Below, one piece after another: positions 3,006 to 40,050 of a stretch of DNA of 64,000 nucleotides (position 1 is its first letter; every line of letters begins with the position of its first letter). The translations under genes were made by a program, and so were the position numbers. The notes under the pieces were generated by a model. It searched no databases and was not told the DNA's origin. It saw nothing but the letters and a program-made list of their open reading frames with translations. The DNA is from Octopus vulgaris (lineage: Eukaryota). The DNA lies in contig OX597816.1 of the NCBI GenBank assembly GCA_951406725.2, forward strand, positions 75,206,001 to 75,270,000. The letters are read 5' to 3'.

Positions 3006-3545
3006 AAGGTCCAGAAAGTCGACCTCGACGGAATTTAAACACCGAATGTAAAGACCGGTGAAATATCACTATGCATTTTATGGCGGAATGCTAACGATTC
3101 TGCTAGCTTACTGCCTCAAAGTCCAGAAATATTAGTTTTAGATTTTGGCACAAGGCCAACATGTTTGCTGGAGGGGATAAGTTGCTGTAATCAACCCCTA
3201 GGGCACAACTGACACTTATTTTATCAACACCAAAAAGATGAAAGGAAAAGTCAACCCCAGCAGAATTTGAACTCACAACATAAAGACAGACAAAATACTG
3301 TTAAGGATTTTGCCCAGCATGCTAACAATTCTGCCAGTTTGCCACCTTAAGGTCCAGAAATATTAGTTTCAAATTTTGGCATAAGGCCAGCAATTTTGGG
3401 GAGGTGGACCCTGAAAGGATGAAAGGTAAAATTGACCTTGGCAGAATTTGAACCCAGAACATAACAATGGGCAAAATGCCACTAAGCATTTTGCCCAGTG
3501 TGCTAATGATTCTGCCAGCCCACCACCTTAAGGTCCAGAAATATT
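3006..3545 (-). mobile_element. Three tandem tRNA-derived SINE copies (Meta-domain-like core) separated by a repeated target sequence
   Basis: Core aaaggatgaaaggcaaagtcgacctcggcggaatttgaactcagaac in each copy (the first is truncated). aaggtccagaaa recurs at 3006, 3118 (one mismatch), 3349 and 3530. Confidence 0.8.
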
Positions 3546-4364
3546 GATAGCAACTTTATCATACTAAACAAACTGAAGGACTGAAATGTAAATATAGAAA
3601 TCTTTAAATTAGAACACAATCAGGTTTCCATGTCGATGCAGGTATGTGTAGATAAATTCACTTTGCAATGGTTCCATGTTTAATCCTATTACATGGTTCC
3701 TATGGTCTTTTACCAGCATATATTTTGTGAGTAAAACTAGGTAGAAGGAAACTGCGTGGATTCTTGTAGGATGGACCTGCACTGTTTTTGATTGTTGGAT
3801 CTAGCCCATCATTTGTTTAGCATGGCCACTCAATCTTGGTTGCCTTCAGCAAAGTGCATTAGCACCTGAGCAGTTATATTGTTATGTAGTCATAGTCAGC
3901 CACATAGTCTGTTGAGCAATTGAGTGTGCACTATAGAGCCAATTCTTGCAATATATTACACGCCTCTACCTGGTTGTTGTGGTTTAGCCTCACCAAATCA
4001 TCTTGATCAAGCAGATCTATGATTGAAAGTGGCCCAAGTCTAACCATTTCATCTGTTTGTATATCAAGGCTACTTTGTTTAAAATGTTCTCTTCCTTTAA
4101 GATACGAGGATGAGATTTGAAAGAGACTTTGGCTACTGTTTCTAGCAGGTCAAACGACTACATAGAGGTAGAGACTCAGTAGTACCAAGAAAAGAACCAT
4201 TACATTTTACTCAACCTGCTAGAAACAACAGCCAAATTTCCTGTTGTATTACTGTCTTAAAATAACTCAATATTTACGTCTCAATCTTTTAGTTTATGTA
4301 GTAGTCTAGAGAGTAACATTAACAGTCACTAACTTCTTTATGCTCTGTTGTAAATAAAAGAAAC

Positions 4365-4729: not shown

Positions 4730-7615
4730 CATCATCATCATCATCATCGTTTAACGTCCGCTTTCCGCGCTAGCACGGGTTGGACGGTTTGACCGGGTCT
4801 GGGAAGCCAGGGGCCGCACCAGGCTCCAGTCTGAATCTGGCAGAGTTTCTACGGCTGGATGCCCTTCCTAACGCCAACCACTCCGTGAGTGGATTGGGTG
4901 CTTTTTACGTGCCACCTGCACAGGAGCCGGAGGGTCCGGCATCGTCACGATCGGTTCGAGCATTTTAACGTGTCAGCGGCACGGGGGCAACGAGGTCCGG
5001 GGTACTTTGGGGATCCAGGGTACTTTGGGGATCTGGGGTACTTAGAATGAGTAGGGGGTATGTGGAATTGCTGCAGAAAGCAGCCCAGGTCTTTGTAGTC
5101 ACAGCATTTATCGTCACTGAGTAAGGAAGGGTTGGTGTAGGTTCCTAAGAAATAAAGACATTCGTTATCGTCACTGAGTAACGTTATTAGGTAGAGGAAA
5201 GAATACAGATATTCTAGAGTTGAGTTGGGGAGGGGGGTCCAGTTGAGGTGGGTAATATAGGGGAGCAACCAGTGGGGAAGGTTGGGGTAAGGAGGAACGA
5301 TGGCAGGAAGGGTTGGTGTAGGTTCCTAAGAAATAAAAACGTAGGATATTACGAGGCGGGAGGGTGCTAAAGGGGGATAGTCGGAATGAAGCAGTGTCCG
5401 GAGGAAGCGTAAGATCGGTGGGCAGTTGATGAGCTATGGCGCTAGCAGCTTGTCTTTTCACAGTGAAAGCATATGAGGAGAAGGGGTAGTGGGGGGAGGA
5501 GGAGGGAGTAGGGCTTACCCGGTGTAGATGAGTAAGGCGTATCCGGTGTAGATGGTGAGGACAGGGTATACTGGTATTGGTGGTGGGGGTGAGGAACAGT
5601 GTTCACCAGTATTGGTGGTGTTGGCGGTGAGAACAGTGTTCACCGGTATTGGTGGTGGGGGTGAGAACAGTGTTCATCGGTATTGGTGGTGGGGGTGGGG
5701 GGCGGGGCGCACCGCCAATGGCTGAAAGATGGCTGAAAGATGGGAAGAGATGGGAAGAGATGGGATTACGGCTTGAGGTAGCCTCGCCTAAGGTTAAATT
5801 TTGTAGAGAGAGAGATAGAAAGATAAATCAAGTTATGGCGAAGGCTTGAAAGTAGCCTTAAAAGGTTAAATTTTCGTAACAATGTATGAATAAACGTAGT
5901 AACAACGAATGGAAATATTAAGATAAATTTTTAAAGAACTTGCTGCGGACATCGATCGGGAGTTGAAATTTAAGAAGTAAGTTAGTTGAATTGGGAATTT
6001 AAATTGTAGAATCGTAATGGTAAGAGGAGGCAAAAAAAGACCGCCAATGGCTGAAAGATGGCTGAAAGATGGGAAGAGATGGGAAGAGATGGGATTACGG
6101 CTTGAGGTAGCCTCGCCTAAGGTTAAATTTTGTAGAGAGAGAGATAGAAAGATAAATCAAGTTATGGCGAAGGCTTGAAAGTAGCCTTAAAAGGTTAAAT
6201 TTTCGTAACAATGTATGAATAAACGTAGTAACAACGAATGGAAATATTAAGATAAATTTTTAAAGAACTTGCTGCGGACATCGATCGGGAGTTGAAATTT
6301 AAGAAGTAAGTTAGTTGAATTGGGAATTTAAATTGTAGAATCGTAATGGTAAGAGGAGGCAAAAAAAGACCGCCAGTGGCTGAAAGATGGCTGAAAGATG
6401 GCTGAAAGATGGGAAGAGATGGGAAGAGATGGGATTACGGCTTGAGGTAGCCTCGCCTAAGGTTAAATTTTGTAGAGAGAGAGATAGAAAGATAAATCAA
6501 GTTATGGCGAAGGCTTGAAAGTAGCCTTAAAAGGTTAAATTTTCGTAACAATGTATGAATAAACGTAGTAACAACGAATGGAAATATTAAGATAAATTTT
6601 TAAAGAACTTGCTGCGGACATCGATCGGGAGTTGAAATTTAAGAAGTAAGTTAGTTGAATTGGGAATTTAAATTGTAGAATCGTAATGGTAAGAGGAGGA
6701 AAAAAAGACCGCCAATGGCTGAAAGATGGCTGAAAGATGGCTGAAAGATGGGAAGAGATGGGATTACGGCTTGAGGTAGCCTCGCCTAAGGTTAAATTTT
6801 GTAGAGAGAGAGATAGAAAGATAAATCAAGTTATGGCGAAGGCTTGAAAGTAGCCTTAAAAGGTTAAATTTTCGTAACAATGTATGAATAAACGTAGTAA
6901 CAACGAATGGAAATATTAAGATAAATTTTTAAAGAACTTGCTGCGGACATCGATCGGGAGTTGAAATTTAAGAAGTAAGTTAGTTGAATTGGGAATTTAA
7001 ATTGTAGAATCGTAATGGTAAGAGGAGGCAAAAAAAGACCGCCAATGGCTGAAAGATGGCTGAAAGATGGGAAGAGATGGGAAGAGATGGGATTACGGCT
7101 TGAGGTAGCCTCGCCTAAGGTTAAATTTTGTAGAGAGAGAGATAGAAAGATAAATCAAGTTATGGCGAAGGCTTGAAAGTAGCCTTAAAAGGTTAAATTT
7201 TCGTAACAATGTATGAATAAACGTAGTAACAACGAATGGAAATATTAAGATAAATTTTTAAAGAACTTGCTGCGGACATCGATCGGGAGTTGAAATTTAA
7301 GAAGTAAGTTAGTTGAATTGGGAATTTAAATTGTAGAATCGTAATGGTAAGAGGAGGCAAAAAAGACCGCCAGTGGCTGAAAGATGGCTGAAAGATGGGA
7401 AGAGATGGGAAGAGATGGGATTACGGCTTGAGGTAGCCTCGCCTAAGGTTAAATTTTGTAGAGAGAGAGATAGAAAGATAAATCAAGTTATGGCGAAGGC
7501 TTGAAAGTAGCCTTAAAAGGTTAAATTTTCGTAACAATGTATGAATAAACGTAGTAACAACGAATGGAAATATTAAGATAAATTTTTAAAGAACTTGCTG
7601 CGGACATCGATCGGG
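4730..7615 (-). mobile_element. Non-autonomous retroelement: RTE-type 3' tail, G-rich internal region and 5' tandem monomer array
   Basis: (ATC)n tail at 4730-4748, then the RTE 3' end (gtttaacgtccgctttccgcgctagcacgggttggacgg) with intact CpGs. Internally duplicated G-rich segment at 4980-5710, then the 329-bp array. No TSD found, so unity as one element is inferred. Confidence 0.6.
5711..7615. repeat. Tandem array of about 5.8 copies of a ~329-bp unit
   Basis: Units start accgcca(a/g)tggctgaaag at 5711, 6040, 6369, 6708, 7038 and 7366. Near-identical apart from copy number of an 11-mer (atggctgaaag), a 10-mer (atgggaagag) and an A-run. Confidence 0.97.
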
Positions 7616-7698
7616 TAGTAGAAATACTTGTCTCAAGTATTCAAACCAAATACTGAACCAATCAAATACAACTAATTTGTTCAAATTATTTGTTTCAG

Positions 7699-29318: not shown

Positions 29319-29473
29319 ATTATTTACATTATTTATATTTGATGGATATATGTCCTCATCTTGTTTGTTGTTAACACAATGTTTCTGGTGGTATACCCTC
29401 CAGCCTTCATCGGGTGCCTTGGGGAAATTTCGAACCTGGGTTCTCATTCCTATGGTATTTTTCGATGTTGTTG

Positions 29474-29520
<47 letters not shown>

Positions 29521-29847
29521 CAGGTCACTGCCTGGAATTGAACTTGGAATCTTGGGGTTAGTAGCCCGCGCTCTTAACCACTACGCCATATGCCCGTGGG
29601 CATATGGCATAGTGGTTAAGAGCGTGGGCTACTAACCCCAAGATTCTGAGTTCGATTACAAGCAGTGACTTGAATAATAATAAGGAGAAGAAGAAGAATA
29701 CCAACAACAACATCGAAAAATACCTCAAGAATGAGAACCCAGGTTCAAAATTTCCCCCGATGAAGGCTGGAGGGTATATAGCCAAAATGTGTTAACAACA
29801 AACAAGATGAGGACAAATATCCATCAAATGTAAATAATGTACATAAT
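29319..29847. mobile_element. Palindromic head-to-head element: tRNA-like heads with Penelope-type hammerhead-like tails
   Basis: Inverted arms of about 250-280 bp centred on gccatatgccc-gt-gggcatatggc (29596-29597). Confidence 0.85.
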
Positions 29848-33809: not shown

Positions 33810-34540
33810 GATGTCTTGCAAACAATTTGCACATGCAAGTGCTACCAGTCAAAAGCTCCGTATACCGGAAGCCAGCAAGTGTATGGGGTCATCAGGAGAG
33901 AATGTGCACTGTTTCGGGGCCTACCTCTCGATGGCATCAATGCGCACCAGCCCCCCTCACTGATATGAGGCCCCGCTTGCTAGATCAGCTGGTTATAAAG
34001 TTAAACTCAATATCCTTCTAGCCATCGCTCATCATCTCTTTTTAACCAAATCCAGTGGCTAGCCTTCTCCACTGTAGATTGGATATCAGCCATGGTGGTA
34101 TTGACTTTACGATGAGTTAGGCCTAGCAATAACAACAGTCGTCTCATGCTGTGTCCAACCAACAAACCCTCTACATCCGACTTCAATAGGAAAATGTTCC
34201 GCTTTCCAGCCTGCGTCTTCACATTCCTCGGGGAGGTTTACATAACGGTTCAATTTTCGAGCCTGAGCAGCGTCCATATTATCTTCATGAGGAACCGTTA
34301 GCTCGACTATATTTACAACTTTCTTTCTTTCACACCACATCAAAATATCTGGTTTTTTCGTAACTGGAATAGGAAAGAAAACCTGGCACCCAGGTAAATC
34401 TGCAGTTACCTCCCAATAGCCGTTCCACTTTTCATTTCTCTCAGGAAATTTCTTGATCTTCTTGAAACGGATCCGCTGACCTGGTCGCACGAAGGTAATG
34501 AAATCTCTTGATGGTACTTTCAACATAAGTTGTGGTGATG
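33810..34540 (-). mobile_element. 3' fragment of a Hero-like non-LTR retrotransposon (restriction-like endonuclease domain plus 3' UTR)
   Basis: KPDILMW..RKKVVNIVELTVPHEDNMDAAQARKLNRY..L..EC..AGWK...FPIEVGCRGFV, continuing after one frameshift as ..VEKASHWIWLKRDDERWLEGY*. This is a PD-(D/E)xK RLE signature typical of the Hero clade. Confidence 0.85.
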
Positions 34541-35831: not shown

Positions 35832-37557
35832 CATCATCATCATCATCATCATTTAATATCCACTTTCCATGCTGGCATGGGTTGGATGGTTTGGCTGAAA
35901 ACTGGGAGGCTGCACCAAGTTCCGATCTGAATTTGGCAAGGTTTCTATGGCTGGATGCCCTTCCTAACACTAACCTTTCTGAAAGTGTAGGGGGTGTTTT
36001 TATATGTGCCACCGGCATGAGTGCCAATAACTTGACACTGGCATTGGTCATGACTACAGTCTTACTTGGCTTGACAGGTATACAGAAGCACAGTATATCA
36101 CCTGTTATTGCCCCCATGAGGCCCGAAGTTCAAATGGTGCTTTTTATATGCTACCAGTACATGTGCCAGTCAGACAGGACTGGCATTGGCCATGACTGCA
36201 ATTTCAGTCAGTTCAACAGATCTTCACAAGCACAGTATATTGCCCAACAAGTCAGTTACATGACACTGGCATCGGCCACAACTACAATCTCACTTGGCTT
36301 GACATCACAGCTTGCATGAAGCCCAACGCTCGAATAATGTTTTTTACAAGCCACTGGCATGGTGCCAGTCAGACAGCACTAACATCAGCCATGACTACAA
36401 TTTCACTCAGTTTGACAGGTCTTCATAAGCACAACGATTGAAGGGTGCTTTTAATGAGCCAGTTATGTGACACTGGCACTGGTCACAACTATCATCTCAC
36501 TTGGCTTGTAGCATCAGCCATCACTACAATCTCACTTGTTGTTAAGCAACAAGACGGGTAAGGGTGATTAGGTGATGGTCTAGGGCTTAGGGGCGGGAGA
36601 CCCCAGAACTTGAAAAAAAAAAACTTTGGTCATCTTGTAGTTGAGGGCTCTTCGTTGACGCCCAACACCACTGGGAGGTGGCCCTCGAAGTCACTGGAAA
36701 TGGAGATCTCCAGGTCCAAATTCTTGAATGGCTACGATCTCACTTGGCTTCATAGGTCTTCTCAGGCAGGGCATATTTTCAAAGGTCTCAGTTGCTTGTC
36801 ATTGCCTCTGTGAGGCCAAACATTCAAAGATCGTACTTTACCACCTCATCCCATGTCTTCCTGAGTCTACCTCTTCCACAGGTTCCCTCCACCATTTGAG
36901 TGTAACACTTCTTCACACACCTGTCCTCATCCATATGCATCACATGACCATGCCAGTGCAGTCATCTCTTTTGCATACCACATCTGATGCTCCTTATATC
37001 CAACTTTTCTTTCAGGATGCTTACACTCTGTTGTGCATGCACACTAACATTACACATCCAGCGGAGCATACTAACTTCATTTCTTACAAGCCTACGCATG
37101 TCCTTAGCAGTCGCAACCCATGTTTCAGTGCTATGTAGCATGGCTGTTCATACACAGGCATCATACATTCTGCCTTTCACTCTGAGCAAGAGATCCATTG
37201 TTGCCAGCAGAGGTAGGAGTTCTCTGAACTTTGCCCAGCCTATTCTTATTCTAGCAACTACACTCTCAGAGTATCCACCCCTGCTACTGACTTGGTCACC
37301 TAGGTAATGGCTGCTATCAATTACTTCTAGTTTTTTCCCCCTGGCATGTGATGGAATCTATTTTCTGTACATTTTTGGCGTTCATTGTACTTGTGCACTT
37401 TCCACACACAAACTATCTTCCTTGCTAAACTTCCTCTGATATCGCTGTGCCTCTTATATGCCCATAGCTTACACTGATCTTATGGAGTTCCTACCTACGC
37501 CTTTTCCACAGATCAAACAGGGCCATCTGCCTAAAGATATTTGTGATTTGTCCACCA
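35832..37557 (-). mobile_element. RTE-type LINE 3' fragment, older copy
   Basis: (ATC)n tail at about 35832-35852, tandemly repetitive 3' UTR, and reverse-strand homology to the ORF end at 38753-39382. Confidence 0.88.
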
Positions 37558-37609
37558 TCTATGTATGTATGTATGTATGTATGTATATATCTATCTATCT
37601 ATCTATCTA

Positions 37610-37643
<34 letters not shown>

Positions 37644-37880
37644 CACACACACACACACACACACACCAGCATGAACAACGGACATTAAGTGATGATGATA
37701 TATATATATATATATAATGTACATATACACACACATATATGCATATATATGTACATATAAAGAAAATAAGACAAAGTAGAAAATGCTAAAATAATTTTAT
37801 CATGAAATACATTTATATATGCATGTACATATATATATATATATATAAATGATATAAATGATATATATATATATATATAT

Positions 37881-38222
37881 AAAATAGAAGTTGAAAATGC
37901 ACTGAGAATAGTTAAAATTACTTTTTATTAATATATTTAAAGCTTTAACTGGCTTTGCAGTTTACACTTATTTTCAAAAAGTTCATATAGAAATATGTGA
38001 CTTATGTCATAGCTTTCTTGCTTCTGACTACTGTTTGAAACTTGCCCTAAAAATAAGGCAAGCTTCAAACACAAGTCAGAAGCAAGACAGCTGTGACGTC
38101 AGCCACATGCTTCTATTTGAACATTTTGAAAATCATTGTAAACTGCAAAACCGGTTAAAGCTTTAAATATATTAATAAAAAGTATTTTAACTATTCTCAG
38201 TGCATTTTCAACTTATATTTTA
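37881..38222. repeat. ~340-bp imperfect palindrome with degenerate Penelope-type hammerhead motifs
   Basis: Arms aagttgaaaatgcactgagaatagttaaaa..ttttattaatatatttaaagctttaac / gttaaagctttaaatatattaataaaaag..ttttaactattctcagtgcattttcaactt. Centre cttgccc-taaaaat-aaggcaag. Confidence 0.9.
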
Positions 38223-38469
38223 GCTATATTTCTACCTGTGTGGAATAAAATAACTTTGTTTTTTAGATCATCATATATAACCCTCTGGCTGGTAACTGAT
38301 GAAGAATTGGTGACCTTCTGTGTTTTCTGTCCGTCTGTGTCTGTGTCTTTAGTATATGTTCATTTATTTGTTTTTTTAATTATATATATAGGTAGGTCAT
38401 ATTTTCTATTTGTTGTCTTTTTATTTAATCCTGGAAATATATATATATATCACCATCACCATCACCATG

Positions 38470-40050
38470 ACAAACCAGGCTATCAGATGTTGCTACACAT
38501 CGCTGGTCACAATGCGCTTCGCATTGTTTTAGCCTTCAAGTGATGCCACCCCGCTGGCTAAGTAGGAAGGTAGACAAACCATAAACCCTTTCAGGTAGAT
38601 GGCCCTGCTCAATCTGTAGAAAAGGTGTAGGTAGAAACTCTATAAGATGTACCCAGTGTAAGCTATGGACACATAAGAGGTGCAGCGATATCAAAGGAAA
38701 GCTAACTGGGAAGATAGTTTTTGTATGCTCAGGAGCAATAAACACTGTAAAGGTGCAGAGACCAAATTCCGCCACATTCCAGGGAGAAAAACTAGAAGTA
38801 GTTCATAGCTTCCGTTACCAAGGTGACCAAGTCAGTAGCGGGGGCGGGTGCGCTGAAAGTGTAGCTACTAGAATAAGAATAGCTTGGGCAAAGTTCAGGG
38901 AGCTCTTACCTCTGCTGGTGACAAAGGGCCTCTCACTCAGAGTAAAAGGTAGACTGTATGACGCTTGTGTACGAACAGCCATGCTACATGGCAGTGAAAC
39001 ATGGGCTGTGACTGCTGAGGATATGCGTAAGCTTGCAAGGAATGAAGCCAGTATGATCCGATGGATGTGTAATGTCAGTGTGCATACTCGACAGAGTGTA
39101 AGTGCCTTGAGAGAAAAGTTGGACCTAAGAAGCATTAGATGTGGTGTGCAAGAGAGACGACTGCACTGGTATGGTCATGGGGCGAGAACGGATGAGGATA
39201 GCTGTGTGAAAAAGTGCCATACCTTAATGGTTGAGGGAACCTGTGGAAGAGGTAGATCCAGGAAGACCTGGGATGAAGTGGTGAAGCACGACCTTCGAAC
39301 ATTAGGCCTCACCAAGAAAATGACTAGCGACCGAGACTTTTGGAAATATGCTGTGCTTGAGAAGACCCGGCAAGCCAGATGAGACCATAACCTGTGGCCT
39401 ATGCCAGGAGCGTAACCAGCCTGCTTATGCATACCTTTTCCTTCTTTGGTCACTAAACTCTGCTTGCGAAGACCTGTTGAGGCAAGTGAAATCAGAATCA
39501 AAATCAAATTCAATGACTGGCATCCATGCTAGTGGGGTGCAAAGAGCACCATACGAGTGTGATCGTTTGACAGAGCAGCTAACCAGCTTCCATGCCAGTG
39601 GCACATAAAAGGGTACCATTCGAGTGTGATTGTTACCAGCGTCGCCTTACTGGCACTTGTGCCCGTGCTAGTAGGGTGCCAAGAGCACCATCCGAGTGTG
39701 ATCGTTGCCAGAGCAGCTAACTGGCTTCCATGCCGGTGGCACATAAAAGGGTACCATTTGAGCGTGATCATTACCAACATCACCTTACTGGCACCTGTGC
39801 TGGTGGCATGTGTAAAAAGATTCGAGCGAGGTCATTGCCAGTACCGCATTACTGGACCCCGTGCCGGTGGCACGTAAAAAGCACCCACTACACTCTCGGA
39901 GTTGTTGGCATTAGGAAGGGCATCCAGCTGTAGAAACTCTGCCAGATCAAGATTGGAGCCTGGTGCAGCCATCTGGTTCGCCAGCCCTCAGTTAAAATCG
40001 TCCAACCCATGCTAGCATGGAAAGTGGACGTTAAATGATGATGATGATGA
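38470..40050 (+). mobile_element. RTE-type LINE, internally deleted (structured leader plus ORF C-terminus plus 3' UTR and (ATG)n tail)
   Basis: ORF 38753-39382: LEVVHSFRYQGDQV..RIRIAWAKFRELLPLL..KGRLYDACVRTAMLHGSETWA..RRLHWYGH..GRGRSRKTW, an RTE post-RT region. Upstream CTQCKLWTHKRCS zinc-finger-like piece. Confidence 0.92.

Follow-up and report, generated by a model that had tools for sequence, protein, structure and literature searches.

The 3' untranslated regions (UTRs) of a Hero-like retrotransposon family in the genome of Octopus vulgaris and of its homologs in metagenome contigs almost certainly share a conserved, covarying hammerhead fold, as judged from comparisons of their sequences. 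The RNA is very probably a self-cleaving ribozyme that would cut after a GUH triplet, and its predicted fold is that of a type SGC hammerhead closed into a ring, reopened between A9 and G10.1 and extended at this opening by an inserted helix (A) and hairpin (B). On balance, we also think it somewhat probable that this ribozyme cuts tandem transcripts of the element into units, which would be circularised and then reverse-transcribed round the circle.

The window (the whole 64,000-nucleotide stretch of O. vulgaris DNA analysed here) carries on its minus strand, at 33811..34524, a 717-bp, 5'-truncated copy of a Hero-like non-LTR retrotransposon with a restriction-like endonuclease (RLE). This copy corresponds to positions 3028-3737 of a 3737-bp unit, is 93.2% identical to the young unit in locus L061 and belongs to a repeat family for which a first look at the host genome gave 2372 candidates. 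A frameshifted remnant of the C-terminal part of the ORF, covering the RLE region, was located at 34007..34524 (-) by translation and alignment with homologs. Its reading frame stops at 34009-34007 and the motif stretch lies 24 nt behind this stop, within the 3' UTR of the element, as the original prediction had placed it. The predicted cut lies 119 nt before the point in the 3'-terminal segment (33811..33871, -) at which insertions end and is therefore not the source of the element's 3' end; in tandem copies this segment continues into the 5' UTR.

The full unit has one ORF of 1112 aa, with an N-terminal zinc finger, a reverse transcriptase (RT; RVT_1, E = 5e-19), a CCHC knuckle and PD..(D/E)xK RLE motifs that were read in the alignment. 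The best PDB matches of the protein are R2 proteins. A single ORF with zinc finger, RT, CCHC and nuclease, together with 5' truncation, is the composition of RLE-type non-LTR elements; the GIY-YIG nuclease and telomerase-like RT of Penelope-like elements were not found, the RT being R2-like and the C-terminal nuclease an RLE. A single ORF with RT and RLE is also common to this element, the HERO clade and Zebulon, and the named relatives of the octopus element are from a mollusc (Aplysia), lancelets and one fish. The label 'Hero' as used here is provisional and rests on domain layout and on host range (that of the HERO clade is described in PMC9004415). In the 5' UTRs of the L061 unit and of L069, L075, L103, L107 and L119, short motifs that resemble hairpins and have a GGAAAGAC-type core are repeated and recur across distant families; they could be promoter or cap-independent translation elements.

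Several other features of the window were noted in passing. Positions 5711-7625 are occupied by tandem repeats of about 330 bp each, which are 98-99% identical and have a strong G skew. Inverted copies (79%) of another retroelement-like fragment lie at 36730-37559 and 38566-39392 and encode a PHD-like finger below the Pfam cut-off, and long self-inverted, MITE-like stretches are present at 29319-29847 (81%) and 37873-38229 (87%).

On the minus strand, the predicted domain is closed by helix A, in which GGGG (33974-33971) pairs with CCCC (33888-33885) directly 3' of CUGAUGA. Helix A begins at the base following A9, which it holds in place, and is 99% paired within 26 representative sequences versus 50% when strands are combined across families. 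Its outer extension, P0, pairs 33983-33976 with 33879-33872 and in other families continues helix A without interruption (e.g. 13 bp in L066). Hairpin B (33955..33970) follows the 5' strand of helix A without a gap and its 3' end runs straight into G10.1 (33954); helices A and B would stack on one another and so keep A9 and G10.1 adjacent. From G10.1 the 5' strand of stem II, GGGGCY (33949..33954), pairs with 33921-33916, and this first pair (G10.1-C11.1) is G-C in 24 and G-U in 2 of the 26 representatives. Helix X, the counterpart of the helix formed by stem I-II interaction in type SGC, pairs 33942..33948 with 33907-33901; its pairing score was 15.7 in-family versus 9.5 +/- 2.7 across families. 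Helix X is separated from stem III by a 6-nt bulge (33936..33941), in the place where most other families have a k-turn: 25 of 34 representatives show the standard k-turn pattern between III and X, and it is absent in the host genome's subgroup, which has the bulge instead. With either bend, k-turn or bulge, the strand could turn back from stem III towards stem I, and the short III-to-I linker should then be no obstacle.

The catalytic parts are distributed over three blocks. The site block (33925..33935) contains a stem III strand (33935-33931), C17 (33930) and a stem I strand (33929-33925), with the predicted cut between 33930 and 33929. The GAAA block (33908..33921) comprises the 3' strand of stem II, G12-A13-A14-A15.1 (33915-33912) and the other stem III strand, down to 33908, two positions of which have decayed in the window copy. 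The CUGAUGA block (33885..33907) consists of the 3' strand of helix X, stem I (33900-33896), CUGAUGA (33895-33889) and the 3' strand of helix A. The letters and coordinates originally given for CUGAUGA, GAAA, the AUC site (33932-33930), GAGAG/CUCUC and CUAGCAAG/CUUGCUGG are correct. The 5' strand of helix II had been misplaced at GGGGCCU 33974-33968. That pairing is not conserved in L066 and L068 and is displaced by helix A and hairpin B; it is possible as a competing fold in the window copy's own family only.

The nested minimum-free-energy fold of the motif stretch is unremarkable (z = -0.33), as is to be expected if the RNA is multiply pseudoknotted, since pseudoknots are invisible to nested folding. 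In this subgroup, the same nested fold buries CUGA in a rival helix, which counts against a ribozyme. An Rfam search, which had been proposed along with the motif, found no hammerhead at E<=10 and only six chance-level matches.

Two further observations concern the surroundings of the core. In 18 of 27 representatives (e.g. L072, L073, L090 and L103) the loop of hairpin B is a palindrome of at least 6 nt, built on the hexamers UGAUCA, UGGCCA, GACGUC and AGUACU; the host genome's subgroup has no such palindrome. These palindromes are possible signals for dimerisation by kissing loops. In L084, a tRNA-like segment, read by eye, lies about 55-120 nt behind the RLE match and immediately precedes a variant form of the ribozyme motif.

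The window copy has decayed relative to its family. Sister copies have GUC at the site and a perfect 5-bp stem III, and the intact site hexamer GCCGUC, which pairs with GAAACGGC, is present in 575 of 788 exact copies. The 6-nt bulge that the original prediction had put into helix III is real and belongs between III and X, while helix III itself needs no bulge. Site, GAAA block and core are all intact in 27 of 53 parsed copies (from a sample of 60). In the window copy the site reads AUC (G16.2 is now A), stem III has two mismatches and the changes at 16.2 and 16.3 are of the CpG-decay type. A strict descriptor of the motif misses this copy, which is probably inactive itself.

We scanned metagenome contigs with an RLE alignment and used the best 80 of 167 homologous loci (33-57% protein identity) to examine conservation; viral contigs yielded nothing of use. 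The strict descriptor (a UN site, stem I of at least 4 bp, GAAA, stem III of at least 4 bp and CUGAnGA) matched 44 of these 80 3' UTRs (41 of the 71 with at least 150 nt of UTR), whereas it matched none of the 80 reverse complements and none of 1420 dinucleotide shuffles. When loci were clustered by coding DNA into 49 clusters, 47 of them evaluable, 33 of the 47 were positive. Most of the other 14 appear to carry decayed or variant motifs that differ by one or two changes and are still recognisable, and CUGAnGA was absent from four of these negative clusters (L095, L106, L127 and L132).

Several patterns in the 33 positive clusters were not imposed by the descriptor. The letter at N17 is C in 13, U in 12 and A in 8 clusters and never G; a GUH site and the G16.2-C15.2 pair are present in all 33, C11.1 in 29, and N7 of CUGAnGA is free to vary. 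C3 and G8, which form a tertiary pair in the active hammerhead fold as described in PMC11300833, are invariant except in L071 (U3-G8) and in L089 and L098, which fall in one cluster missed by the descriptor and have U3 and A8 in their place. We read the U3-A8 combination as a compensatory change in this tertiary pair that arose in a single event.

Covariation was evaluated in several ways. When only A and B were fitted and the start of stem II was then scored, 26 of 34 representatives had stem II beginning at the base that follows hairpin B, and none of ten other offsets applied to more than 2 of 34. In the set of 26 representatives that remained after seven with unclear A/B and L062 were dropped, helices A, II, III and I are 98-100% paired by many pair types, versus 50-79% across families. 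A structure-blind alignment of 24 of these sequences (L066 and L068 were omitted for their different spacing and two misaligned rows were retained) gave 57 double-sided changes in stems I and III versus 17.8 +/- 3.4 after shuffling (0 of 500 shuffles). True partners in stems I and III were 92.8% paired and slid partners at most 47.5%; this percentage is partly due to construction, because the rows were chosen for that pairing, but the variety of pairs is not. The 3' UTRs with the motif have CUGAnGA after stem I, GAAA between II and III, covariation in the three stems (I to III) and an NUH site, as hammerheads do. The original prediction had asked for core conservation and covariation of the helices among homologous 3' UTRs, and its expectation is borne out by the 33 of 47 clusters and by covariation in all helices.

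The knotted core was also rightly placed outside types I, II and III: pseudoknots are present, and the block order (site, GAAA, CUGAnGA) is not among the circular permutations that those types represent. This order is, however, not without precedent, contrary to what had been supposed. Eckert et al. 2023 (PMC10085705) describe natural non-circular permutations of the hammerhead, among which type SGC was validated and cleaves. The fold examined here shares with type SGC the order of blocks, the pseudoknotted core, a short linker between stems I and II (3 nt in the window), a span of 12-18 nt from site to GAAA and an extra helix (X) that uses the III-to-I linker and the strand 3' of the 5' side of stem II. 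It differs in that the 5' strand of stem II lies upstream instead of following CUGAnGA, which is followed by helix A, and in that III is joined to X by a k-turn or 6-nt bulge. It also differs in residing in animal retrotransposons, whereas the SGC ribozymes (HRIMA-1 and variants) described in PMC10085705 were identified in metatranscriptomes and in no genome of a known organism. Its novelty lies in the place where the chain is opened, A9/G10.1. In all six of the published block orders, stem II is taken to lie within 1-2 nt of CUGAnGA, and the search patterns described there (CUGAUGAG or CUGAUGAUG followed by stem II) cannot match the Hero-like fold because its stem II 5' strand lies upstream.

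Two other hammerheads show related flexibility, as far as their descriptions go. Stem II can be a pseudoknot in the PK hammerhead (PMC11300833), and the CChMVd(+) hammerhead, with its extra A10, tolerates one additional base at A9/G10.1 (PMC3705267), where tolerance of single-base insertions depends on the base and some harm activity. Unlike either of these as described, the Hero-like fold has its chain opened at A9/G10.1 with helices inserted there. A literature search that covered sources other than subscription journals and Repbase Reports found no report of a hammerhead split at A9/G10.1 and none of a hammerhead, ribozyme or circular RNA for the HERO clade, and the word 'hero' is absent from the main text of a 2026 ribozyme-discovery preprint.

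RT run-off at the site would be expected from any templates that have been cut, and a fraction of copies do begin there. Among the first 100 exact copies, an unbiased sample, the site is intact in 77 and mutated in 19, and the other 4 begin at the cut itself. Of 788 copies examined genome-wide with a matched filter, 10 begin at unit position 3619/3618; under the same filter, the true truncations at two control sites numbered 0 of 1115 and 2 of 687 (2 of 1802 combined; Fisher p = 2.3e-4 for the excess at the cut, 6.3e-4 without an internal jump that is one of the ten). Eight of the ten begin at the exact base and two have one extra matching base. With the filter allowed for, about 2-4% of copies begin at the cut and about 96-98% read through; a strong RT pause could mimic part of this excess of 5' ends, for which only two control sites were compared. 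A T usually precedes the 5' junctions of copies. In locus L246 (C13 of the host genome, near 19076363), unit position 2176 is joined directly to 3619, the first base past the predicted cut, and this looks like an RT jump from a cut end.

What the original prediction overlooked is that these elements have no defined 5' end and are inserted head-to-tail. We searched the host genome using nothing but the initial 139 nt of the unit as query, which gave 67 candidates, and scored 30 of 40. Of the 30 best loci, 29 have the unit start immediately preceded, at a fixed junction, by the 3' end of the element itself; the 30th is truncated 36 nt inside the unit, before any junction. This layout holds in copies of 76% to 100% identity, and exact 3'/5' junctions number 19 genome-wide. 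Two of the loci, L160 and L166, look like one duplicated insertion. The upstream parts in the 29 loci are 7-1974 nt long (three short lengths were read by eye): 21 extend past the cut, 8 stop short of it and none ends within 3 nt of it, and 18 contain the whole ribozyme. The ends of five other long copies are scattered within the unit. Self-targeted insertion, which needs solo 5' ends, was considered as a source of the layout and rejected, as no such end was seen in the 29 loci.

Head-to-tail arrangement is also found outside the host genome, since 9 of 55 metagenome loci with at least 500 nt downstream run into a like ORF start, with assembly artefacts possible among them. Internally deleted, non-autonomous units of about 0.6-1.5 kb in the host genome (L158, L161, L163, L164, L167 and L171-L175) keep the 5' UTR and the ribozyme end in the same layout, and the deleted form is present in one contig of run X1 as well. 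The tandem layout as such is probably already known from a pufferfish element, because Zebulon of Tetraodon was reportedly characterised, going by the title of Bouneau et al. 2003, as a tandemly structured non-LTR retrotransposon.

Repeats within a locus tend to resemble each other. Among 14 tandem pairs, 7 have variants that are common to both repeats and absent from all other sampled copies, and in L200 and L212 repeats are closer within than between loci (the L200 repeats differ by 0.51%, versus at least 1.22% to other loci). Five young pairs give no signal, having no power, and older pairs differ equally within and between loci. Gene conversion could alternatively homogenise neighbouring repeats. 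At L200 (G000:C2:193236000-193243500) we also observed that the private changes on the sense strand are 9 A>G versus 1 T>C, three of them in both repeats; this excess at a single locus is a weak hint that RNA editing could have been captured in cDNA.

The 3' ends of 72 solo copies in the host genome vary by about 4 nt into the junction in a manner that fits pairing with (AT)n targets, and only L207 runs further, 11 nt beyond the junction. Insertions are often in (AT)n tracts, which suggests short pairing between RNA and target. The variable solo ends do not prove internal priming, because the 'end' of such a unit is a matter of definition.

Together, these features can be accommodated by a cycle with a circular RNA template, a template that we consider somewhat better than evenly supported. 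A locus consisting of a partial 3' copy and a full unit would give a transcript with two ribozymes; both would cut, and the single unit set free in this way would have the final 119 nt of the element at its start. Helices A, II, X and III would bring the two ends of this unit back into the domain and keep the 5'-OH next to the cyclic phosphate, so that an RtcB-type ligase or the ribozyme could join them. The element protein would then nick an AT-rich target and start reverse transcription internally, at the 3'/5' junction. RT would mostly stop early, producing ordinary 5' truncation, but passing one full turn would rebuild a source locus with two ribozymes, and templates that were unligated or re-nicked would yield 119-nt copies. 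We favor the circle because it covers the internal cut site, the absence of a scar, the fixed junction, the lack of a 5' end, the regeneration of two-ribozyme loci and the 119-nt copies. The predicted wiring also suits a circle: the two cleavage products would remain joined by four helices (A, II, X and III), while stem I would lie wholly in the 3' product. The full combination, i.e. an autonomous LINE clade with a 3.7-kb circular RNA, an end-clamping permuted hammerhead, an internally priming rolling-circle RLE RT and, in many families, a palindromic dimerising loop, has in our view an even chance of being correct.

Individual steps of this cycle have precedents in other elements. Non-LTR retrozymes, as described in PMC7229834 and bioRxiv 10.64898/2026.07.22.740005, have tandem units with one hammerhead each and circularised monomers and thus provide a model for the cutting and circularisation steps; RtcB is the main ligase that closes their RNAs into circles (Cervera and de la Pena 2020, PMC7229834). 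Unlike retrozymes, which are non-coding, 150-1000 nt long and equipped with type I or III ribozymes, the Hero-like element is 3.7 kb and autonomous. Penelope-like elements, whose pseudo-LTR hammerheads are described in PMC4209133, share with it a partial-tandem layout, a hammerhead in the repeated part and AT-rich targets (PMC11167929). One such element also starts reverse transcription internally according to the same account, as is proposed here. Penelope-like elements differ by their telomerase-like RT, GIY-YIG nuclease and minimal type I hammerheads, compared with the R2-like RT and C-terminal RLE of the Hero-like element. The HDV-like ribozymes at the 5' ends of R2, RTE and L1Tc are likewise self-cleaving RNAs that process a non-LTR transcript, as predicted here, but they cut at and define the 5' boundary as they are described, whereas the hammerhead lies inside the 3' UTR of an element with no defined 5' end.

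The main rival to a circular template is a linear one with a repeated end, in which the ribozyme is active, the upstream copy makes the 5' end and the downstream copy remains uncut. On reaching the 5' end, RT would then use the 119-nt redundancy to switch to a 3' end, either of the same RNA or of one dimerised with it. We consider this rather unlikely, although it predicts the same seamless junction and shared variants as the circle does. R2 RT jumps between template ends, and the junction in L246 (2176 to 3619) would be a jump of this kind from a cut end. The palindrome in the loop of hairpin B (18 of 27, with four hexamers) is also as a dimer signal would be, but it is absent from the subgroup of the host genome. 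Failed switches should moreover have left full units with exactly 119 nt upstream, and there are none among the 29 loci; the scheme further requires two identical ribozymes to behave differently, one being active and its twin silent.

It is quite unlikely that the ribozyme only trims or destabilises read-through RNA while tandems arise from uncut multimeric transcripts of tandem loci. Most copies do read through the site, and in the Penelope-like system studied in vitro, ribozyme mutants still inserted and uncut RNA was the main substrate (PMC11167929, as far as described there). Without regeneration, however, upstream parts could only shrink in each generation, yet the same layout is found at 76% to 100% identity and in distant families, and repeats within a locus have private variants in common.

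Finally, a non-catalytic platform for protein binding that merely has the shape of a hammerhead, an alternative left standing by the original prediction, is highly improbable: RLE proteins do bind pseudoknotted 3' UTRs (described in PMC12222951) and the core is interrupted at A9/G10.1, but an N17 that is never G, a free N7, the U3-A8 swap and 5' ends that fall to the nucleotide at the scissile bond are all predictions of cleavage.

The Hero-like fold extends hammerhead wirings beyond the six-permutation scheme, whose blocks were assumed to be indivisible, and this explains why pattern searches missed a ribozyme that is present in over a thousand copies in the host genome. It also places a non-circularly permuted hammerhead in the genomes of known organisms and gives it a likely job. 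If the circular template that we favor is correct, a branch of R2-like retrotransposons would need no linear RNA with a free 3' end, the textbook cycle of target-primed reverse transcription (TPRT) would have to be revised for them, and LINEs would be linked to Penelope-like elements and retrozymes. A ribozyme that clamps its own products, combined with an internally priming RT, would then also be of interest for RNA circularisation and gene-insertion tools.
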